From the IMG/VR virus record IMGVR_UViG_3300029231_000023, positions 1 to 40,792 of that record: a DNA stretch of 40,792 bases, one strand, 5' to 3'. A program made the translations under genes and the position numbers. Source of the stretch: a virus. The notes beneath the pieces were generated by a model. The model saw nothing but the letters and a program-made list of their open reading frames with translations. It had not been told where the DNA came from and ran no database searches. Position 1 is the first letter of the stretch, and every line of letters begins with the position of its first letter. This document shows positions 1-40,792 of this stretch, one piece after another.

Positions 1-150
1 TGGCGGAGTAGCCCGAGCTGCCGATCTTGGCGGAGTCGCCCGAGCTGCCGATCTGGGCGTAGTCGCCCGAGCTGCCGATCTTGGCGTAGTCGCCCGAGCT
101 GCCGATCTTGGCGGAGTCGCCCGAGCTGCCGATCTTGGCGGAGTCGCCCG
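1..150. repeat. 27-bp tandem repeat, 5.5 units (left part of a 14.5-unit array)
   Basis: Units tggcggagt[ac]gcccgagctgccgatct at 1, 28, 55, 82 and 109, with a partial unit at 136. They encode G[D/Y][S/Y]A[K/Q]IGSS on the minus strand. Confidence 0.95.
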
Positions 151-22638: not shown

Positions 22639-23802
22639 TTACTTTGCCGTTACCGTTGCGTTGCCAGCCTTCTGCGCTTTGTAAGTCGCGTCAGCCTCAA
22701 CGACTGTGATCTTCTTGCCCGTCGCTGCCGTGACATCGGACTTGCCGTCCCACGTCGGCCACGTTCTGACGTTCTGGCCGTAGGTGACAGTCTCAGCCGA
22801 ATCGCCTACCTTGTACTTGTAGACGTTGCCGCTTGCTTCCTTCGCGGGCGTTACCGTGATCTTCGTGTCACCTGTCGCCGTGCCCGCCGCAGAGGTAACC
22901 GTCAGCGTGCCGAGCGACGGGGTCTCGTCAATGTCAGCAACGGCAATGCCGTCCTGATACTCCGCGAACAGGGTCATGCCCATGATCGCAAAGGACTCGG
23001 AGACCGCAGTGGAGTAGTTGCCCTGCACATGGAAACCGACAAGGTTGGTTTCTCCGTCGGTTCTGTAGTCGAGACCGGCACGGGCGAAATCGCTGTCAGC
23101 TGGGTCAATGTAGTACAGGACAATGTTCTCGACCGGAGTCGCAATAACACGACCGCGTTTGATCTCATCGTCAGACAGCAGGAACACGGTGCTATAGCCC
23201 ATGAAGTTCTTGATGTACTGGAAGCCGAATTCAGTCTGGATGGTGATATCGGCGCCGCCGAGGTAATCGTACAGATCCATCACGTTCACGAAGCCAACAA
23301 CGTTGGTCGCGGTGCGGTGCATCTGCTTGAACTTGTTGATAACAGCGCCCTTCGCCATTGCAAGCGCGCGCTGCCAGTTGGTTTCGCTGACGGTCAGCAG
23401 GCCGGTATTCAGATAATCGTAGAAACGATTGGTGACATTGGTCTGCAGCTCATACAGGAAAGCTTCGTCGGTCATTGCGACGGCAACGTCATAGCCGTAT
23501 TCCTTGATCGCCTCGATGGAAACAGCCTTTGCGTACTTCTCGACGTTGATGTTGGCGTAGTCCTTTTCAATGACAGTCGCTTTGGAATAGGGGATCTCTT
23601 CGCCCTCGCCGACGCTCTGCGCGAGCGTCACGCTTGCAGTCTTGGATTTCAGGACGGTTCCCGGCTGCTTTTTGATGGGGCGCATAATGCCTAGAATGTC
23701 GCGCAGGTGCTGCCAGTTCCGCGCAAAGCGGGTTACAAAATCGATTTCACGAGCGGTTACCTGAACGTCGCTCGTCATCGTCAGATTGGTCTTTGCTGCC
23801 AT
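22639..23802 (-). CDS. Major capsid protein with a C-terminal Ig-like extension
   Basis: 387 aa, following the scaffold gene. The C-terminal roughly 90 aa are T/V/A-rich and beta-like (LTVTSAAGTATGDTKITVTPA...). Confidence 0.8.
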   Translation of the reverse strand: MAAKTNLTMTSDVQVTAREIDFVTRFARNWQHLRDILGIMRPIKKQPGTVLKSKTASVTLAQSVGEGEEIPYSKATVIEKDYANINVEKYAKAVSIEAIKEYGYDVAVAMTDEAFLYELQTNVTNRFYDYLNTGLLTVSETNWQRALAMAKGAVINKFKQMHRTATNVVGFVNVMDLYDYLGGADITIQTEFGFQYIKNFMGYSTVFLLSDDEIKRGRVIATPVENIVLYYIDPADSDFARAGLDYRTDGETNLVGFHVQGNYSTAVSESFAIMGMTLFAEYQDGIAVADIDETPSLGTLTVTSAAGTATGDTKITVTPAKEASGNVYKYKVGDSAETVTYGQNVRTWPTWDGKSDVTAATGKKITVVEADATYKAQKAGNATVTAK

Positions 23803-23804
23803 GT

Positions 23805-24395
23805 TTATTCTTCCTTTCCGAACAAATTGAGATTTGCGGCAATTGCTGCCTGCCGTTCAGACGCGTCCCTGATTTTGAAGATGTCGTCCCGGCTCATAGC
23901 GCCGCCGTTGTTTGCGGGCGGGTCTTTGGTGTCCGCGCCCTTCTGTTTCGTGGTAACAACGAAATCTGCCCACTCTTCCTTGATGGACTTCTTCAAATCA
24001 TCGGCATTCTTGATCTTGCCGTCTTCCAATTCAATCGAAGAAAGATCGGTGACCTTCAAAACCGAATCAATTCGTTTTTCGCTGATACCCACAGACTTCA
24101 AAAGTTCCCGATACGCGGATTCTTTCGCGCTCTTGGTTTCCTTCTGCATCTGCTCTCTTTTGTAGTCGTCAAATTCCTTTTTGATCTTGTCGTGCTTATC
24201 CTTCCAGCCATCGTCGCCTTTGGCTTTCAGGTTTTCAAGCTCCGCCTGTACTCCGGGGAGCTTTTCGGCGTCTGCCTTATACCGTGCAAGGTCGCTTTTC
24301 AGCCCGTCTACGGTATCGGTGTGCGCCTCAATGATCGTATCCATCTGCTCTTCTGTCAGCCCCATTCCCTTCAGGAGCTTGCGCGTCAGTGCCAT
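23805..24395 (-). CDS. Scaffolding protein
   Basis: 196 aa, highly charged coiled coil, immediately upstream of the capsid gene. Confidence 0.8.
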   Translation of the reverse strand: MALTRKLLKGMGLTEEQMDTIIEAHTDTVDGLKSDLARYKADAEKLPGVQAELENLKAKGDDGWKDKHDKIKKEFDDYKREQMQKETKSAKESAYRELLKSVGISEKRIDSVLKVTDLSSIELEDGKIKNADDLKKSIKEEWADFVVTTKQKGADTKDPPANNGGAMSRDDIFKIRDASERQAAIAANLNLFGKEE

Positions 24396-24478: not shown

Positions 24479-24498
24479 ACACTTATACCGTATATTTA

Positions 24499-24513
24499 TG
24501 GCTCTGGGACGCA
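24499..24513 (-). promoter_or_regulatory. Conserved 15-nt box, copy 1 (TGCGTCCCAGAGCCA on the minus strand)
   Basis: Identical 15-mer at 32822-32836. Both copies lie a few nt after a stop codon, and each is followed by TATAAG and a hairpin. Confidence 0.6.
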
Positions 24514-24517
24514 ATCT

Positions 24518-24916
24518 TTATCCGTTTTTCATCTCATCTTCGACGATTTTCAGGTACTGCGCCGCATAGTTCGCCGCCGCTGGCTTCAAATACGGCTGTG
24601 CTTTGTTTCCAGCCGTCCAGTGCCAGTTCCCCTTCGCGTCCTGATACGCCCACGGCGTATGTCTCCCGCCCGGATAATACTTTCCGGTTCCGAGTTCGAC
24701 GTATGCGGCATATTCCGTGTCACTTCCGATGTATGCAGCCGGTTCCCCTTCATCTACGCGGTGCGTGATGCTGTTGCGTAGGTTTCCGGTATCAACCGGG
24801 CATAGCCGCTTCGCGTACTTTTCCGCCGTCATGCCGATCTTTTCAAGCGCACGAAGCAGCACGTTTTTCATATTGTCCTTGATTTCCTCTGAGTTGTCGA
24901 TAAATTTAACGTCCAT
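24518..24916 (-). CDS. HK97 gp10-family protein
   Basis: CPVDTGNLRNSI...YAAYVELGT motifs. The likely start is ATG 24916 (MDVKFIDNSEEI). Confidence 0.7.
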   Translation of the reverse strand: MDVKFIDNSEEIKDNMKNVLLRALEKIGMTAEKYAKRLCPVDTGNLRNSITHRVDEGEPAAYIGSDTEYAAYVELGTGKYYPGGRHTPWAYQDAKGNWHWTAGNKAQPYLKPAAANYAAQYLKIVEDEMKNG

Positions 24917-25904
24917 TTTTCTTTTTCCACCCTGCCCATTCGGCATAGCTCATGTTCTCGATCAGCTCATTCCGTCCGGTCGCCTGGTTCCTGGCGCGGC
25001 GCTTGCCTCCGGAGGTGTCGATTCCTTCGATCTCGGATACCAGCGTGCAGCGGCAGTTATAGATTTCGGACGGTGGGCCGTTCGGGTCACCTGGGTAGCG
25101 GCAGCCGTTGGAGAACTTTTTGTCGTTGTCCACGATCTCGCCGTCGAGCATGGCGTGGGAGTGGCGGGTTCTTCCGTCGAGCGTCGCCATCCATTGTTTC
25201 CTGCACTTGATTCCCATTTTCTCAGCGGCATAATAAGAATCCAGCCGTCCGGCGTTCTGCGCGCCCGTGACTGCCGTTCGAGCTGTCCGGATAGCGGAAT
25301 CGCGGTTCATGGTGGTGATACGACTTTGCAGATCATCTGCCATGCCCTTGAGGCTCCGGCCCTGCAAGATGGAGCTGGTGACACTGGCGGTTATCTGCTT
25401 TTTCCCGTATGCAAGATCAATCCCACGTTTGAGTGCTCGCTTCTCCGGGTAGGACGGCATAAGGCCCGGCTGCTCGGCAATCAGGCGCTTCACAACCCGC
25501 TCATCCCAGAGATCGAATCCAACGTCCCCCACCACCTGCTCGATCATATAGGCTGCTAGGTTCCTGTTCAGGCTGTAAATCCCCGGCGTTGCGTCGTTGA
25601 TATAGGCGATTGCGGTTGCGTTTGCATTCGTCATTCGCTCTGCGACTTTATCCCTTAGCGCTTCAAACCGCTTCCCGCGTCCAATCTGAGCAGCACGCCA
25701 CAGCTTGTATTGATCCTCCGAGATCTCCCCAGCGTCCAGCCGCGCCTTTTCCACCGCGTCACGCGCTGCAAATTTACCGAAGTAATCCCTGATCGTATCC
25801 GTCAGATCGTTATACGCTTCCCTATATATCGCAGCAATCCGCTTTTCAAGCTTTGCGAGCTCTGCGTCTGTCATTTTCTGCCCGGCGGTGTTGCTTGTGC
25901 TCAT
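24906..25904 (-). CDS. Head morphogenesis protein (Mu F / SPP1 gp7-like)
   Basis: TLDGRTRHSHAMLDG and NCRCT motifs. 332 aa. Confidence 0.85.
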   Translation of the reverse strand: MSTSNTAGQKMTDAELAKLEKRIAAIYREAYNDLTDTIRDYFGKFAARDAVEKARLDAGEISEDQYKLWRAAQIGRGKRFEALRDKVAERMTNANATAIAYINDATPGIYSLNRNLAAYMIEQVVGDVGFDLWDERVVKRLIAEQPGLMPSYPEKRALKRGIDLAYGKKQITASVTSSILQGRSLKGMADDLQSRITTMNRDSAIRTARTAVTGAQNAGRLDSYYAAEKMGIKCRKQWMATLDGRTRHSHAMLDGEIVDNDKKFSNGCRYPGDPNGPPSEIYNCRCTLVSEIEGIDTSGGKRRARNQATGRNELIENMSYAEWAGWKKKNGR

Positions 25905-25998: not shown

Positions 25999-26817
25999 TC
26001 ACATCGCAACGATGTAACTCGCATAATCCTTCCATCCGTCGGCAGCTTTATACGCCGCGACCGATGCAGCCGGGACTTTGATGGTAAATCCCGCTGTGCT
26101 CGAGCGGAACACGCTACTTCCGAGTGTTGGAGGCGTTGCAGCCAAGCATGTAACCGATGCAAGTTGCCTACAGTAGCCGAAAGCCCTGTCCCCGATCTCT
26201 GTTACCGTATCCGGTATAGTGATCTGCTTAATCATTGCACTCATAAAGCACCGGTTTTCTATCTTGGTGAGATTTTGTGGCAGGATGATATTGATTGGCA
26301 GTTCTTCATCCGTTGCATTATTGTAGACTGGCCGAACATCTTCAAACGCACTAGTTGGAAGCACTGTCACAAGTGGCGGAACTGTCAGCGTTGCGATGGC
26401 TGCACCACTAAAGCATGCATCCCATAACTCACTGATCGTATTTGGCAGAACCAGCCCGTGTACCAATGCCTGGTTAAACGCCATTGATTCTATTACCGTG
26501 ATGTTATTTGAAGCATCACTACAGTCAAGGTTTTGTAGTCGGCGCTGCCCTGCGAACTCATACGCGTAGATTGCCGTGTGGTTATAGAGTTTTGCGCGCT
26601 TGATATAGTGGCCTGGGTTGCCGCTTGTGATATCCCCCATCGCAATATACTCTGCTTCCATGTACGGTGTAGTCGGTGCGGATTTTATTCCGCTGATCGC
26701 GCCTGCAATCCCTTCGATGGTCTGTGCCGCTGGGGCTGTGCCGCCTTTGGCCTCCACTGCGTCATACGCCGCGCCGACTGCCGTGATAATGCGGTCGATT
26801 TCTGTCTGTACGCTCAT
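25999..26817 (-). CDS. BspA-type leucine-rich-repeat protein with a fibre-like N-terminus
   Basis: ITIPDTVTEIGDRAFGYCRQLASV...TPPTLGSSVF...IKVPAASVAAYKAADGWKDY. The N-terminal MSVQTEIDRI resembles the MSTQTEITRL of the neighbouring gene. Confidence 0.7.
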   Translation of the reverse strand: MSVQTEIDRIITAVGAAYDAVEAKGGTAPAAQTIEGIAGAISGIKSAPTTPYMEAEYIAMGDITSGNPGHYIKRAKLYNHTAIYAYEFAGQRRLQNLDCSDASNNITVIESMAFNQALVHGLVLPNTISELWDACFSGAAIATLTVPPLVTVLPTSAFEDVRPVYNNATDEELPINIILPQNLTKIENRCFMSAMIKQITIPDTVTEIGDRAFGYCRQLASVTCLAATPPTLGSSVFRSSTAGFTIKVPAASVAAYKAADGWKDYASYIVAM

Positions 26818-28279: not shown

Positions 28280-29626
28280 CTATCCCTCCATATCTTTCGT
28301 GGAATATCGCTCTAATTCTTCCGCGCTTTTCCTCTTCAAAATGTTTGCGATTTCCTCCTGTGTAAGCCACGGCAGCTTGCTCAGAATCGTTTCGTCGTCA
28401 AGGTAGCTCGCGGCAAGCAGCACCATTTGCGTCTGTTCTAACTGATTTGTTATTTTGGATCGCATAAAGGACGGCTCGTCATCAATACCAACGATCTTAA
28501 ACAATGCCTGCAGGAACTCGATCACGCAGTATTCAAATTGATCCACCTTGTTATCCATCGGCTGATACGCCGCCATGATCTCCGTCGCCGTCTTCTGCCC
28601 CGCCTGCATTTTTGTCACATCAAGCATTTGCGCGTCACGGTAAAGATCGTCGCTGATTCTGGAAAGAAGCGCTTCCCGAGCTTCAACTGGGATTGTGAGC
28701 GTATGAGCCTCTGCCTTCGCACCGTCATCGTCCACAAGACCTACACCAATTCTCCGCATGGACTCTTTGAATCGTGCCATATCGATCTCGTCCATTCCGC
28801 CAGCGTTCGAGATCGTCCAGTAAATGATTGACGCCTCATCAACTGTATTCGCAAAGCCTGACTTAATGAGATCGTAGCAGTCTATCGCCTCGCGTTGGCC
28901 GACAAGCTCTGACTGCCTTGCGCGGTTGCCGTAGAGCGGAATAATCGGGAAGCCGGGATAGTTTTGATATGCAAGGATCTCCGTACCGTCCGCTTCGGAA
29001 CTTGCCTCGACAGATACATATCCGCGCTTTGCCTCTAGGATCTCCATGTTTTTTCCGCTTCTGCGGATGAACTGCGTAAAGCCGTCCGGCTCGTAGAGTG
29101 CTGCGCGAAGCGGCTTTGTATCAGATACCTGCCAGAATCTAATCCCGGAGCGCAACGCACCGTTTTCCTCATCGAGAAGCGGAACGAACTCTGTTACATC
29201 GAAAACCTCAAGATGATCAAGGTTCCAGAAGCCATACGATACGCCTCCAACAAGCGCCGCATGCGCTGCGTCCTGCAGCCGAACGTCGAACGATGTGCCG
29301 AGTTTTTCTTTGTTCGCGGCTTCTTTCAGCGTCACACCGTTTCCGAGCAGATACTGCGTTTCCTGCGTGATGAAATTTGCAAAGAAATTGCTCCGAAGCT
29401 TATAGTTCGGACTGTAGTTGTCCGGAATGACTTTCCCGTTGAGTGTATAAAGCAGCTTTTGAAAATTAGCAATCGTCACATTCCTGTGCGCGTCATACTC
29501 CTTCGCAATAACCGCCTGTTTGTATAAATCCGAGTCTTTGTGATTATTTATCGCGGACAGAACAAATTCCATCCGTTCCCGGTCAGACTTTTCCGCGACC
29601 TCTAAAAAATCTTGATATGTTTTCAT
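28280..29626 (-). CDS. Portal protein (SPP1 gp6-like)
   Basis: 448 aa, immediately after TerL. Confidence 0.8.
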   Translation of the reverse strand: MKTYQDFLEVAEKSDRERMEFVLSAINNHKDSDLYKQAVIAKEYDAHRNVTIANFQKLLYTLNGKVIPDNYSPNYKLRSNFFANFITQETQYLLGNGVTLKEAANKEKLGTSFDVRLQDAAHAALVGGVSYGFWNLDHLEVFDVTEFVPLLDEENGALRSGIRFWQVSDTKPLRAALYEPDGFTQFIRRSGKNMEILEAKRGYVSVEASSEADGTEILAYQNYPGFPIIPLYGNRARQSELVGQREAIDCYDLIKSGFANTVDEASIIYWTISNAGGMDEIDMARFKESMRRIGVGLVDDDGAKAEAHTLTIPVEAREALLSRISDDLYRDAQMLDVTKMQAGQKTATEIMAAYQPMDNKVDQFEYCVIEFLQALFKIVGIDDEPSFMRSKITNQLEQTQMVLLAASYLDDETILSKLPWLTQEEIANILKRKSAEELERYSTKDMEG

Positions 29627-29634
29627 CTTTTACC

Positions 29635-30903
29635 TCACCGCGCCAGCTCCGGCACAAATCTGTGTTCTTTGAAGTGCTTTTTCAAGACCGTCATCACCAT
29701 GTACCTGATTTCGTCCATAGCGTGGTCGTTTTCCTTCACGACGCGGTCAGATTCTGCTTTTTCGTCCCACCTGTAAAGCCCGAATTCGCGGATGGCGTCC
29801 TCGCAGCTCTCATGGATTTTGACCTTCCCGGACGCGATCATCTCAGCCGTTGTCTGTATGCCGGGCAGTACATCATTCACAGCCCCGCGAACTTTGAACT
29901 CATGGTGCTTCTTTACGGTGGCAATGAAAGCGTCCGCAGACGGGTCTACAATCAGACATTTTATATCTCTCCCACCCGCAAGACGCTTTACCTCTGAATA
30001 ATACTCTTCTGGCGTTTTTTCTTTCCGTTCTTCTCGCCCGCAGTAATAATACTCTCCAATGCGCACCGCTTCTGTTTTCGTCACGCACCACAAGCCAGCC
30101 GAAAACGGATTGTGCGTGCCGTAGTCAATGGAAATGTAATAATCGCCGGTGTCCGGTGTGTCCTGCACGATGCAGGAATCGCCAAACATCGGATACACAA
30201 GCCCTTCCGCAATGCAGCGCTCACCGAGGATATCCCGTCGATACCAGATGCTTTTTATATCATACTGGCTTTCGATTTCCGCAAGCCTTTGGGCTGTAAT
30301 CGTTGCGTTGTCCCGGATAGTAAAGTGCCGGTAATTATACCGCGCTCCAAATTGTTCCGGGAATCGGTCTATGTAATTCTGGTAAATCCAGTGTCCAGGC
30401 GACGAAGGGTTTAAATCCCAAAAAACACGTCGAAGTTTTGCGGCAAGCTGTCGATTGAATGCCTCCTTGATCGTATCCTCATGGTGAAGGTTGATCTCGG
30501 TTGCTATCCACATCCCATAGGAGTTGCCGCGAATCTTCTTGAAGCTGTCCGCTTTCGCGCCGCCCGCGAATATCACGACGTAATCCCGCTTATGTGAGCG
30601 GATAACCAGTGCTTCATTTCCCTTATACTTCGTCCACCGGCAGCGGCCACGGAAAAGATACTCCAATCCGTAGCCGTTCGCGTCCCCGATGTTCAGTTTC
30701 GCGTTTGCCGCTGTGGAACCTGTCGCAAGGTGGATGCGGTCAGGCGTCCCTTTCTCGATCAAATAGGCAAATGCCGCAATGTTGTCGATGGTCTTACCGG
30801 CACGGACAGCGCCCTCCGCTACGGAAATCGTCGCCCGCGTCGCCGCCGCGATATATGCCTTATGCTTCTCGCCGAACTTCGGTTGAAGGGTCTGCGTAAT
30901 CAT
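29635..30903 (-). CDS. terL: Terminase large subunit (PBSX/Terminase_3-like)
   Basis: Walker A GAVRAGKT. 422 aa. It follows TerS with an ATGA-type overlap. Confidence 0.9.
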   Translation of the reverse strand: MITQTLQPKFGEKHKAYIAAATRATISVAEGAVRAGKTIDNIAAFAYLIEKGTPDRIHLATGSTAANAKLNIGDANGYGLEYLFRGRCRWTKYKGNEALVIRSHKRDYVVIFAGGAKADSFKKIRGNSYGMWIATEINLHHEDTIKEAFNRQLAAKLRRVFWDLNPSSPGHWIYQNYIDRFPEQFGARYNYRHFTIRDNATITAQRLAEIESQYDIKSIWYRRDILGERCIAEGLVYPMFGDSCIVQDTPDTGDYYISIDYGTHNPFSAGLWCVTKTEAVRIGEYYYCGREERKEKTPEEYYSEVKRLAGGRDIKCLIVDPSADAFIATVKKHHEFKVRGAVNDVLPGIQTTAEMIASGKVKIHESCEDAIREFGLYRWDEKAESDRVVKENDHAMDEIRYMVMTVLKKHFKEHRFVPELAR

Positions 30904-31238
30904 TCCATACCAGCTTCCGCCAGATACGCGGAAGTGTCCTCCATGTCAACCGATTCCTCCGGGTTGTCCTTCTGGCCGAGATACTGCTTCCCGAGCCAGA
31001 TTGCCATGTTTGCATTTTTCTCCGCTAATTTCCACTGGTTCCGCCTAAGAGATATTTTCCCCGCTCCTCGCTTTTGCTTAAAAACTTCGGAGAAATTTTC
31101 TCCATATGTGCGTTTACACCAAGCATTTAGTGTTTTATCTGTGACGTCGAACCAGCCGCAGATTTCCTCAAGCGTGCATTGCAGGCCGCATAGATTCTCG
31201 AACTGCTTTTGATCTATTTCCTTTTTCAGCCTTGCCAT
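30900..31238 (-). CDS. terS: Terminase small subunit
   Basis: KQFENLCGLQCTLEEICGWFDVTDKTLNAWCKR (HTH) and SLRRNQWKLAEKNANMAIWLGKQYLGQ. GGAGG RBS. Confidence 0.8.
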   Translation of the reverse strand: MARLKKEIDQKQFENLCGLQCTLEEICGWFDVTDKTLNAWCKRTYGENFSEVFKQKRGAGKISLRRNQWKLAEKNANMAIWLGKQYLGQKDNPEESVDMEDTSAYLAEAGME

Positions 31239-31333: not shown

Positions 31334-32626
31334 TCAATCGTCATTTCCCAAGCCTCGCACGATTGTCCATTCCCGCTCCGACAACTCCCAAATATCCGTG
31401 TTGACCTTGTCCGCAGCAGCCTTGTCCGCAGCAGCCTTTTCCGCAGCAGCCTTTTCCGCAGCAGCCTTTTCCGCAGCAGCCTTTTCCGCAGCAGCCTTTT
31501 CCGCAGCAGCCTTTTCCGCAGCAGCCTTTTCAGATAGCAAAAAGCCGGAGCCGAACAATCCTTTCCCCGACGCTTTCTGTGCGTCAAGCGCGCGGATAAA
31601 ATGTGCATCTCTTCCGCTAATTTCAAGGCTTACGCCGTGAGCTGCCATATAACACAGCATTGTTGCTGTCAAAACCTCGTCTGGATATGAGTATTTTGGC
31701 AGTTCTCTGTGCAACTTTTTGAGATTCTTTTTGTTCTCGCCATCCAGTATTTCTCTTAAATCAGCGGCAGCAACAATCTTATTGCCCCCCATGTTGGTAA
31801 CAAACGACGTATTGACAGACGCGCCATTTTCATACACAACTCCGCACCCGCACGCCACATAGTTTGCCGAGCCGCGCATAATTCCGAGAAGCGTAAGCGT
31901 TGGAGCAAACAGAAAGAAGTTGATTCTCTTGCTTGTGTACCACTCGCAGATTTCTGAAATAATGGAAAAAGGCGGATTGTCTATCACAACACACCCGAAA
32001 GGGTATTTCTCGCTTTTATAATCTCCGCCCGGATAAAACGGGCGCACAATCGCAGCACTGCCAATTTCGTACTTCTCCGCCACCCAATCTCTTACTGCGT
32101 CGTAGATGTTATCCGGCGTGTAGCAATCGTCCGTTTTTTTCTTCGCTTCAAACTTTTTCAGAAACTCTTGATATTCTTCATCATCGTCCGAAAGTTCCCC
32201 GCGCTCCATGCGTTCTCTAAATTCCTGTTCGCGGTCTTCGTTAGTAAGTTCCGTTTCGTCGGTATCTTGGAAATCCCAGTCAAAGTCAAACGCCGACAGG
32301 TCAAGACCAGGCAGTTCATCAGCCAGCAGGTCAAAGTCCCAATCGCTCTCGTTGCTCTTGTTATCCACCAGGCGAAGGGCGTTCACCTGCTCCGGTGTCA
32401 GATCGTCCACGCAGACGCAAGGCACTTCTTCCATGCCCAGTTTCTTTGCCGCTAGAGCGCGGCAGTGGCCGATTACAATCACACCGTCACGATCGATCAC
32501 AATCGGCTGCACAAATCCATACTGCTTGATGCTCTCCGCAACGTTGTTGATTTGTGTCTTGTCATGCTTCTTTGCATTTTTCCCGTATGCAGTAATGCTG
32601 GAAAGCTTTCTGTTTTTTACCTCCAT
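31334..32626 (-). CDS. ParB-N-domain / DNA methyltransferase fusion with a (KAAAE)n C-terminal linker
   Basis: ATG at 32626 after GGGGAGG. ParB-like VIVIGHCRALAAKKLG. MTase motif IV VIDNPPFS. Eight KAAA[E/D] units near the C-terminus. Confidence 0.65.
   Translation of the reverse strand: MEVKNRKLSSITAYGKNAKKHDKTQINNVAESIKQYGFVQPIVIDRDGVIVIGHCRALAAKKLGMEEVPCVCVDDLTPEQVNALRLVDNKSNESDWDFDLLADELPGLDLSAFDFDWDFQDTDETELTNEDREQEFRERMERGELSDDDEEYQEFLKKFEAKKKTDDCYTPDNIYDAVRDWVAEKYEIGSAAIVRPFYPGGDYKSEKYPFGCVVIDNPPFSIISEICEWYTSKRINFFLFAPTLTLLGIMRGSANYVACGCGVVYENGASVNTSFVTNMGGNKIVAAADLREILDGENKKNLKKLHRELPKYSYPDEVLTATMLCYMAAHGVSLEISGRDAHFIRALDAQKASGKGLFGSGFLLSEKAAAEKAAAEKAAAEKAAAEKAAAEKAAAEKAAADKAAADKVNTDIWELSEREWTIVRGLGNDD
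31405..31530. repeat. 15-bp tandem repeat, about 8 units, coding
   Basis: ccttgtccgcagcag x2, then ccttttccgcagcag x6. Confidence 0.9.
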
Positions 32627-32675
32627 GTTGTCCTCCCCATCATGCCCGATCACCGGTCAGCCACCTCATTTTTTC

Positions 32676-32777: not shown

Positions 32778-32802
32778 GGGCGTAGAGTTGATCTCTACGC
32801 CC
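32778..32802 (-). terminator. Terminator-like hairpin after the late-regulator gene
   Basis: On the minus strand: GGGCGTAGAG-atcaa-CTCTACGCCC followed by TTCTTCAT, a moderate U tract. Confidence 0.4.
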
Positions 32803-32821
32803 TTATAGTAAATGTTAAATT

Positions 32822-32836
32822 TGGCTCTGGGACGCA
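32822..32836 (-). promoter_or_regulatory. Conserved 15-nt box, copy 2 (TGCGTCCCAGAGCCA on the minus strand)
   Basis: Identical to 24499-24513. It lies 7 nt after the stop of 32844..33134 and is followed by TATAAG (32807-32802) and a hairpin. Confidence 0.6.
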
Positions 32837-32843
32837 GACTTTT

Positions 32844-33134
32844 TCATGAAAGCCCTCTTTTTTGCCCCACAAGGCGAATAAATTGCCTGTGCCACTCCTG
32901 TGCAGTGCGTTCGGACACATAAACCGCCATCGCAGCGCCCTGTAAGGTGTGTGTCCGCTTCCAAAGAACCAAGTCTATGAGCCGGAGTCGCTCCGCGCCG
33001 TCAACGAGCCGTTCCGTCTCTGCGATTGCATCCTCAACGGCAGCGCGCTCGGCCCTCGTCATCAGCCCGCCGCCCTTATAGCTGCGGATCATCCATTTTG
33101 CATAGGCCCACCAGCCGTATCGCGGCGTGCTCAT
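32844..33134 (-). CDS. Putative late-gene transcriptional activator (RinA/ArpU-class position, sigma region-4-like HTH)
   Basis: 96 aa. HTLQGAAMAVYVSERTAQEWHRQFIRLVG. It is the last gene before the packaging genes. Confidence 0.5.
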   Translation of the reverse strand: MSTPRYGWWAYAKWMIRSYKGGGLMTRAERAAVEDAIAETERLVDGAERLRLIDLVLWKRTHTLQGAAMAVYVSERTAQEWHRQFIRLVGQKRGLS

Positions 33135-40323: not shown

Positions 40324-40792
40324 TCAGCCTCCACAAATTCACCGTTTTTCAGGCAGTACCATGTATCGGCCTTGATCTTCTCGCCGTCTACATATTCCGT
40401 CTTCACGCAGCGCGGAACGAACCGTCCTTTTTCGTCGGAATATTCCCACTCCGCAAGCGTGATCCAGCTTCCTGCCTTTGCCTTTACGGCAGAGCCGTTG
40501 CCAGCGCAGCAGATCACGGAGTCTTCGCCGGTACTATTGATCTTGGCGTAGTTGCCCGAACTGCCGATCTTGGCGGAGTTGCCCGAGCTGCCGATCTTGG
40601 CGTAGTTGCCCGAACTGCCGATCTTGGCGGAGTTGCCCGAACTGCCGATCTTGGCGGAGTTGCCCGAGCTGCCGATCTGGGCGTAGTCGCCCGAGCTGCC
40701 GATCTGGGCGGAGTCGCCCGAGCTGCCGATCTTGGCGGAGTAGCCCGAGCTGCCGATCTTGGCGGAGTAGCCCGAGCTGCCGATCTTGGCGG
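40320..40792 (-). CDS. 3' part of the early repeat protein (repeat array plus a C-terminal globular domain)
   Basis: The frame is open from 40792 down to the stop at 40320. C-terminal sequence ...WITLAEWEYSDEKGRFVPRCVKTEYVDGEKIKADTWYCLKNGEFVEAE. In frame with 511..1 across the window junction. Confidence 0.8.
   Translation of the reverse strand, partial: AKIGSSGYSAKIGSSGYSAKIGSSGDSAQIGSSGDYAQIGSSGNSAKIGSSGNSAKIGSSGNYAKIGSSGNSAKIGSSGNYAKINSTGEDSVICCAGNGSAVKAKAGSWITLAEWEYSDEKGRFVPRCVKTEYVDGEKIKADTWYCLKNGEFVEAE
40544..40792. repeat. 27-bp tandem repeat, 9 units plus 6 nt (right part of the array)
   Basis: Units start at 40544 and recur every 27 nt to 40786. The final tggcgg equals window positions 1-6. 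Confidence 0.95.

Follow-up and report, generated by a model that had tools for sequence, protein, structure and literature searches.

Two candidate RinA-type late promoters fused to predicted terminators in a 40.8-kb phage genome

The virus record IMGVR_UViG_3300029231_000023 of IMG/VR (positions 1 to 40,792; this whole stretch of 40,792 nucleotides is called the window here) carries a small gene for a putative late regulator and, on the same strand, two copies of a short sequence box that each lie just past a stop codon. Minus-strand open reading frames (ORFs) run uninterrupted from about 40.5 kb to 32844 and give way to packaging and morphogenesis genes. The last gene of this early region (32844..33134, minus) encodes a protein of 96 amino acids (aa), which we assign below to the RinA/Ltr family as a short member with a predicted sigma-region-4-like fold; it lies on the same strand directly upstream of the packaging cluster, and relatives keep this order. 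The box, minus-strand TGCGTCCCAGAGCCA, occurs exactly twice in the window, at 32836-32822 (site 1) and 24513-24499 (site 2), and no further copy was found there with up to three mismatches allowed. At site 1 it begins 7 nucleotides (nt) after the regulator stop codon (TGA, 32846-32844), and at site 2 it begins 4 nt after the stop codon of a gp10-like gene (TAA, 24520-24518); TATAAG follows 14 nt past the box at site 1 (32807-32802) and 11 nt past it at site 2 (24487-24482). A first-pass annotation of the window had reported the two copies with these positions, stop-codon distances and TATAAG distances, and a search of the window confirmed them all.

The first gene downstream of site 1 encodes a 439-aa protein with a ParB N-terminal-like domain (31334..32653), followed, all on the minus strand, by a small-terminase-like ORF (30900-31238), the large terminase (29635-30903), the portal (28280-29626), and genes for a leucine-rich repeat (LRR) protein, a Mu-F-like minor head protein and a gp10-like protein. 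The last of these, an HK97-gp10-like gene for tail completion or the neck (24518..24946, minus), stands immediately before site 2; beyond it come the scaffold gene (23805-24395, minus), the major head protein gene (22639-23802, minus), and then the major tail protein and further tail genes. Because the early ORFs run up to site 1 and structural genes follow it, site 1 marks the boundary between early and late genes, and site 2 an internal junction before the capsid genes.

An exact 15-mer repeat had been thought unlikely to arise by chance in 40 kb, an argument that fails on closer inspection: first-order random sequences contain a mean of 1.08 exact dispersed 15-mer pairs, and 68% of them contain at least one. 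The window itself holds four such pairs (TGCGTCCCAGAGCCA and three others), and a shuffle test of the TGCGTCCCAGAGCCA repeat with mismatches allowed was unremarkable. The identity of the 15-mer is on its own statistically ordinary, its significance coming from context and from related genomes, and contextual and comparative tests were therefore used instead.

The 15-mer is most likely the core of a promoter-like cassette of about 38 bp that occurs twice in the window and consists of an A-rich stretch, T(T/G)GC, N8, GCCA, N11 and TAnnnT. A consensus from 40 distinct instances, anchored on GCCA, reads AAAG(T/A)-T(T/G)GC-N5-AGA-GCCA, then an A-rich N11 and TAnnnT, and in many of the 40 a TGn directly precedes the hexamer, forming an extended -10. 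Counted from the predicted transcription start, the A-rich stretch lies at about -45 to -41, T(T/G)GC at -39 to -36 and a near-invariant AGAGCCA at -30 to -24; a lineage-specific stretch separates the latter two, and an A/T-rich spacer of 11 nt leads from AGAGCCA to the -10. The box, spanning -39 to -24, is a single bipartite element of 16 bp, T(T/G)GC-N8-GCCA, with partial dyad symmetry. The 15-nt unit first noticed thus stands as an exact repeat, and not as the putative functional unit, which is longer and bipartite. With its upstream extension the box reads AAAGT-CTGC-GTCCCAGA-GCCA at site 1 (32822..32842, minus; predicted -44 to -24) and AAAGA-TTGC-GTCCCAGA-GCCA at site 2 (24499..24519, minus).

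The predicted -10 of late promoter 1 is TACTAT (32805..32810, minus), 11 nt past the box and overlapping the TATAAG at 32807-32802; that of late promoter 2 is TATAAG (24482..24487, minus), also 11 nt past the box. In the TACTAT register, site 1 acquires the 11-nt spacing of site 2 and of every relative, so that the TATAAG distances first reported are right and the use of TATAAG as the site 1 -10 is not. In relatives the site 1 hexamer is TACAGT, TACAAT, TATCAT, TATCGT, TATATT or TATGCT, always after N11, and sites homologous to site 2 carry TATAAA (in the related loci L124 and L135), TAAAAT (L157, L163) or TACAAT (L153); spacer sequence and -10 vary among relatives, and the 11-nt spacing is strict. 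Neither window site has a -35 hexamer (TTGACA, 16-18 nt before the -10): positions -35 to -30 read GTCCCA and are lineage-variable. A consensus promoter scan of the window called no promoter at either site, and a test for the sigma-A feature of a TAnnnT -10 with optional TG found TACTAT at site 1 and TATAAG, with G at -7, at site 2. A weight matrix trained on other genomes only, with the window's own two sites excluded, was run over both strands of the 40.8 kb; it gave site 2 a score of 35.7 bits and site 1 a score of 26.7, against 6.0 for the next best position and a shuffle maximum of 11.9.

Two other promoter assignments were considered and rejected. A sigma-54 promoter (TGGCAC-N5-TTGCA), suggested by the TGGC...GCCA pattern and by TGGCAGT repeats in the Staphylococcus aureus phage 80alpha, misfits in both spacing and second element; S. 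aureus, moreover, is not known to have a sigma-54. TTGCGT as a sigma-A -35 would leave a spacer of 22 nt.

An exact-box scan of IMG/VR returned more than 120 loci, mostly near-identical relatives together with about 15 chance matches in coding regions. Because requiring the box biases this set, conservation was assessed instead on 46 loci retrieved by way of the regulator protein, with regulators 30-98% identical. Most relatives come from genome bins of Oscillospiraceae and other Clostridia (Oscillibacter, Faecousia, Gemmiger, Faecalibacterium, Pseudoflavonifractor). In 32 of the 46, the pattern GCC[ACT]-N11-TAnnn[TAG] occurs between -40 and +45 nt relative to the regulator stop, as compared to a background, in the same loci, of 0.026 per window of that size. 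The weight matrix recovers four more, so that the cassette follows or overlaps the regulator stop in 36 of 46; in three further loci it lies 0.1-1.5 kb downstream of that stop. Examples at the regulator stop are TGCGTTAAAAAGCCA-N11-TACAAT in L121, whose regulator is 57% identical, TGCGTAAAAGAGCCA-N11-TATCGT in L124, TGCACCCCAAAGCCA-N11-TATATT in L131 and TGGCCTTAAAAAGCCA-N11-TATGCT in L130.

The upstream half-site tracks the recognition helix of the regulator. The helix TAQEWH pairs with the half-site TTGCG in about eight loci, among them L142 and L147, whose regulators are of long or intermediate length with an overall identity of only about 40%; in L147 the 15-mer itself is unchanged. Other pairings are TARRWH with TGGCC, TAKRWH with TGAG or TGAT, and TAWRWH with TGAT.

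Site 2 is also conserved: L153, L157 and L163, whose proteins are 35-54% identical to those of the window, likewise have a site at the junction of the gp10-like and scaffold genes. The first-pass annotation had proposed looking for the box at packaging- and capsid-proximal junctions of related phages, and the cassette is found at both, at the regulator stop in the 36 of 46 loci and as site 2 in these three. L135 has a candidate counterpart 4.5 kb downstream of its first site, which carries a matched box and the hairpin of the window's site 2. In two-site genomes the boxes agree within a genome and differ between genomes, and the flanks of paired sites are unrelated: the window has CTGCGTCCCAGAGCCA at site 1 and TTGCGTCCCAGAGCCA at site 2, L135 has TTGCGTAAGAGAGCCT at both, L157 has TGAGCCACAAGAGCCA at both, and L153 and L163 have TGAGCCACAAAAGCCA at site 1 and TGAGCCACAAGAGCCA at site 2, one base apart. 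That the two boxes might be direct repeats at the ends of an 8.3-kb inserted module was considered and rejected, since each is part of a promoter-like motif and both positions persist in distant relatives whose boxes have other sequences.

Several variations on the cassette were seen among the relatives. Long-form relatives, with regulators of about 134 aa, carry a second hexamer, TA(T/G/C)CAT(G)G, 2 nt past the -10 at predicted positions -4 to +4 (L142, L146, L148-L152, L156, L158-L161, L164, L168, L170, L173); it is better conserved there, as TAnCATGG, than the -10 itself, and is not present at the window's two sites. A direct repeat, GAGCCA-N3-GAGCCA, occurs only in the L157 type. The whole cassette is duplicated in tandem, 100-170 nt apart, in L144 (10424, 10522) and L168 (10415, 10582). 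In L121 (10606-10697), L149 (1678-1753) and L150 (2781-2856), tRNA genes (Ser-GCT, Ile-TAT, Thr-TGT) lie directly past the cassette and before the terminase, and in these lineages a tRNA would be the first late product.

Each cassette in the window runs into a hairpin. At site 1, a stem of GGGCGTAGAG / CTCTACGCCC (32802-32793 / 32787-32778, minus) with the loop ATCAA and a U-rich tail at 32777-32768 forms a predicted intrinsic terminator (32802-32778: -20.9 kcal/mol, z -7.8). At site 2, a hairpin of GTGGTAACAG...CTGTTGCCAC (about 24481-24449, minus; 24480-24450: -20 kcal/mol, z -5.4) followed by T6 at 24448-24443 forms a second, predicted to end the first late operon. The two hairpins are unrelated in sequence; an unrelated hairpin with a U-rich tail after each TATAAG had been described from the sequence, and folding supports it, the tail at site 1 being weak. 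Relatives keep a hairpin at the site 1 position with different sequences. The site 2 hairpin is conserved in L124 and L135, and L157 and L163 have another hairpin with T7 at the same place. A consensus fold of the site 1 hairpins from nine lineages was attempted; the MAFFT alignment was poor, loop lengths differing, and individual folds were used. Across the short-form clade, hairpins of five or six unrelated sequences all begin within -3 to +2 nt of the -10 end, a narrow range that is as expected if the start must fall within the stem.

Starts were placed 7 nt past the -10 by standard sigma-A promoter geometry, which predicts G32798 for promoter 1 and A24475 for promoter 2 (both minus). Each is preceded by a pyrimidine and falls 4-6 nt into the 5' arm of its hairpin. 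RNA initiated at the cassette would keep a stem remnant of 5-6 bp, apart from the U-tract, and transcripts arriving from upstream would form the full stem; the truncated stem that the first-pass annotation had deduced for RNA begun at the cassette agrees with these predicted starts. Folding found no complete terminator downstream of the predicted starts in either window leader.

The 96-aa regulator gave no usable match in sequence searches of Pfam, PHROG and PDB, and its 110 close homologues are all annotated as hypothetical. Its AlphaFold2 (AF2) model has five helices and a pLDDT (predicted local distance difference test) score of 92; the best PDB fold matches, weak ones with E values of 0.2-3, are the -35-binding region 4 of SigL, SigD, SigE and SigA, followed by the likewise weak matches KorA and YlxM-type helix-turn-helix (HTH) proteins. 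The NCBIfam model TIGR01636 (phage_rinA) scores the protein at 15.3 bits, below its cutoff of 31.9, and matches 12 of 15 family members below threshold (best E 1.1e-4). A profile search of 1.8 billion representative proteins found 841 relatives, many of about 133 aa, and of ten of these longer relatives tested (family profile, E <= 1e-20), five pass the curated RinA cutoff. Aligned with 80alpha RinA by hhalign (P 3e-4, 40% probability over the HTH), SERTAQEWH falls opposite the recognition helix SDRTAHRIK; the short form lacks an insert of about 38 residues present in longer relatives. Judged by these comparisons, the 96-aa protein is probably a short, deep and distant branch of RinA/Ltr, and the label "RinA-like" that it had first been given is supported only in the sense of a distant, sub-threshold relationship through intermediate sequences.

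The best conserved part of the regulator is an N-terminal helix, PRYxWWxYxKxxIRxY (residues 4-19), invariant at 30-98% identity. In the form PRYGWWxYxKWMIRxY it loosely recalls the aromatic sigma region 2.3 (YATWWIRQ), a speculative likeness without profile-search support.

We compared the system with the RinA/Ltr systems of phi11, 80alpha, phi55 (LtrC), phiFL2A (ArpU), Listeria (LlgA) and Phi13 (Ltr). Ltr/RinA proteins bind immediately distal to their own coding sequence and are the sole phage proteins needed for late transcription; the C-terminal region of Ltr sets specificity, the ltr gene and terS are separated by a terminator that reporter data require, and a block of 59 nt just past rinA suffices for specific activation (PMC3152322, PMC3753634). 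The window shares four features with these systems: a small regulator with a sigma-region-4-like C-terminus, encoded by the last early gene upstream of the packaging and morphogenesis cluster; a site, predicted here, immediately distal to the regulator coding sequence, with the box 7 nt past the stop; a terminator between regulator and late genes, predicted here at 32802-32768; and a regulator and site that vary together between phages (PMC3152322, PMC3753634, PMC7397523, PMC13123087). By these features the system appears to belong with RinA/Ltr late activation, from which it differs in lacking a direct-repeat array: there is a single bipartite box of 16 bp in place of two to four direct repeats of 7 nt or 18 bp. 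Unlike the known proteins of about 140 aa, moreover, the window protein has 96 aa, lacks the insert of about 38 residues and scores below the RinA model cutoff; its hosts are apparently Oscillospiraceae and related Clostridia; and the terminator stem overlaps the predicted start. In contrast to 80alpha, judged to have a single late promoter, the window has a second, internal copy before the scaffold and capsid genes, and its box lies 11 nt from the -10, in the -35 region, whereas the published start of 80alpha/phi11 lies more than 155 bp from the required sequences.

The 80alpha sequence can be fitted to the same geometry. Past the rinA stop, TGGCAGT-aaag-TGGCAGT is followed after 20 nt by an invariant TATTAT-ga-TAGTGT, and the repeats, TATTAT and second hexamer coincide with the stretch of the published 59-nt block. 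With TATTAT as the -10, the second repeat occupies -39 to -33, which is where the T(T/G)GC half-site lies in the present cassette. The rinA-terS region (L175 1722-1907; 80alpha DQ517338 16221-16406) is readable as a complete promoter, with repeats at -50/-39 and TATTAT as the -10, and TATTAT-ga-TAGTGT has the two-hexamer layout of the long-form relatives. The S. aureus RinA loci in IMG/VR comprise two allelic classes only and say little on generality.

Replacement of the -35 by an activator box also has precedents outside this family. Middle promoters of T4 combine a MotA box centred at -30 with a sigma-70 -10 and have no -35, and the Lpa box of P1 is centred at -22. The window sites resemble T4 middle (MotA box at -30) and P1 late (Lpa box at -22) promoters in that a box stands in place of the -35 (see also the discussion in PMC3152322); they differ in box sequence and protein fold, and no MotA, AsiA or Lpa homologue was detected, although no test was run for this comparison.

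Taken together, these data make it probable that the window contains two activator-dependent, RinA-type late promoters fused to terminators. From the motif, its conservation, its match to the regulator helix, the fold and the predicted hairpins, we infer binding, starts, termination and late timing as follows. The 96-aa protein, bound to the box, would substitute for -35 recognition and recruit host RNA polymerase, promoter 1 driving the ParB-like, terminase, portal and minor-head genes and promoter 2 the scaffold, major-head and tail genes. The hairpins, 1-3 nt past the -10, would terminate transcripts from upstream, namely those of the early operon at site 1 and of the first late operon at site 2. 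As G32798 and A24475 fall inside the 5' arms, RNAs begun there would lack a complete stem and so escape termination. Each site would then be a terminator with an embedded terminator-immune promoter, insulating the late genes from early transcription at site 1, and ending the first late operon and restarting transcription before the capsid genes at site 2. Of the two readings put forward in the first-pass annotation, the one that took the box as a DNA site for the RinA-like activator at late promoters is favoured by the stop-codon cassette, the fixed -10 spacing, the helix tracking and the conserved two-site layout, with TACTAT in place of TATAAG as the -10 of site 1.

Several observations weigh against this proposal. 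Four lineages keep the regulator and have no detectable cassette in the DNA available. AGAGCCA is invariant while regulators diverge to 30% identity, so its reader might not be the variable helix. At site 2, TATAAG has G in place of the highly conserved T at -7, and at site 1 the terminator tail is weak in the window (UUCUUCAUC; it is TTTTT in several close relatives). A complete terminator-like hairpin with a U-tract lies 3-25 nt past the predicted start in L149/150, L151, L160, L143, L166 and the second L144 copy. In 80alpha a strong terminator lies about 75 nt beyond the 59-nt block, with the 5' end mapped by RACE (rapid amplification of cDNA ends) just past it, and the S. aureus late start maps about 140 nt downstream of the position equivalent to our predicted start (PMC3152322). 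Simple recruitment does not explain terminators past the predicted start, either in the several lineages or in 80alpha.

These last findings are the strength of an explanation on the model of lambda Q, in which the RinA-like protein binds the promoter box, loads onto RNA polymerase and confers resistance to terminators, the hairpins being barriers passed only by polymerase so modified; this is the read-through reading of the first-pass annotation, transferred to the DNA level. Both the hairpins of the relatives and the 80alpha terminator would then be read through, the requirement of RinA for DNA that lies over 155 bp before the mapped terS start, otherwise unexplained, would make sense (PMC3152322), and the TAnCATGG hexamer of the long forms, 2 nt past the first, loosely recalls sigma-dependent pause elements. 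The window also resembles lambdoid Q/qut systems in having the regulator gene directly before the late promoter, the site in the -35 to -10 region and a terminator close downstream. Its predicted starts, however, lie inside the terminator stems and not upstream of them as in lambda, so that no full terminator is met, and there is none in either leader. The missing -35 makes a constitutive promoter like lambda PR' unlikely; the two sites lack the second hexamer and any pause-inducing -10-like element; Pfam, NCBIfam and PHROGs gave no Q-family match for the 96-aa protein; and the terminator of L140 lies upstream of the box, an ordinary arrangement. We regard such a mechanism as unlikely for the window. 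Other lineages of the wider family may use read-through of this kind.

It is rather less likely still that the box is bound by a different factor, from the host or perhaps the ParB-like or small-terminase-like product, with the RinA-like gene linked to it by position only. The near-invariance of AGAGCCA across regulators down to 30% identity speaks for such a factor, co-evolution of protein and site predicting otherwise, but the upstream half-site tracks the recognition helix, and the cassette overlaps the regulator stop in most lineages despite other genes downstream (tRNAs in L121 and L149, other terminases). Site 2, moreover, is outside the packaging context, and the published family members have their binding sequence directly beyond their own gene (PMC3753634).

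The other reading of the first-pass annotation, a nut/qut-like recognition element, finds no support in the window, where the starts fall inside the stems, a -35 is lacking and the hairpins are unrelated. In its RNA-level, nut/put-like form, in which the box in the nascent transcript would modify the elongating polymerase together with the hairpin, we consider it very improbable. Transcription from upstream does pass through the box, and both sites have a hairpin after it, yet the box has no predicted structure, an Rfam scan of the whole window gave no match, and the combination of a conserved boxA-like sequence with a conserved boxB hairpin that marks N/nut systems is not seen, the two hairpins being unrelated. 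L121, L147 and L159 have no nearby hairpin and keep box and -10. The conserved fixed distance to an extended-TG -10-like hexamer is instead a DNA-level signature, and the partner protein has a predicted sigma-4-like DNA-binding fold. A chance repeat, or a functionless remnant of duplication or recombination, is what the roughly one dispersed 15-mer pair expected per random sequence of this size and the window's three other pairs would allow, but it is effectively refuted already by the two copies keeping the extended motif and spacing amid unrelated flanks, by a weight matrix from other genomes that picks only these two sites, and by a position conserved across deep divergence with lineage-specific boxes.

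In many phages of Gram-positive bacteria, packaging, lysis and gene transfer are under the control of RinA/Ltr late activators. The type of switch is already known; what the window offers is a compact, well-defined form of it, and this lineage from gut metagenomes is a clean case, with one short box at a fixed distance from the -10 and two copies per genome. If two RinA-type late promoters fused to terminators are indeed present, the design suggested is a simple one, in which a terminator blocks early read-through and the promoter embedded in it escapes. The cassette provides a sequence rule for locating late promoters in uncultured gut phages, the correspondence of helix and half-site and the exact predicted start and stop positions are directly testable, and the same geometry in S. 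aureus 80alpha makes the puzzle of the distant RinA site experimentally approachable. A broader possibility, which we hold to be doubtful, is that RinA/Ltr proteins in general are -35 surrogates that build a promoter at the box, the 59-nt block included, and perhaps also give read-through, the window lineage being a derived, compact version. In many lineages, 80alpha included, the predicted transcript would meet a full terminator within 5-100 nt of its start. If this broader view were true, the family would be the equivalent in function, among Gram-positive phages, of lambda Q, the start would have moved into the terminator stem in the window lineage, and there would be an explanation for RinA requiring DNA over 155 bp ahead of the 5' end mapped for terS.

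Further features of the window were observed in passing. Within the predicted late leader, a near-perfect palindrome of 58 nt (32733-32676, minus; AT-rich centre, stem of about 27 bp) lies 22 nt before the ParB-like start, and L124, L130 and L131 have a large palindrome of different sequence in the same place; it may serve as a site for packaging or for the binding of a protein, or act in RNA processing or stability. A small hairpin, CCGCAGCGTTCTGCGG (32764-32749, minus), is nearly unchanged in L017/L119, L124, L134 and L135 despite a divergent leader. Within the ParB-like gene, 31405-31531 encodes an Ala/Lys-rich pentapeptide repeat, which accounts for a weak histone-H1-like Pfam match. Between the portal and Mu-F-like genes, 25999-26817 (minus) encodes a 272-aa protein with BspA-type leucine-rich repeats, which may be a moron or decoration protein; L124 has different genes in this stretch. 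Finally, tandem repeats of 27 nt at the two ends of the window (1-150, 5.6 copies; 40539-40792, 9.4 copies) match one another, so that a circular or circularly permuted genome was probably opened inside a single repeat array, and these repeats would encode a peptide repeat of nine residues.

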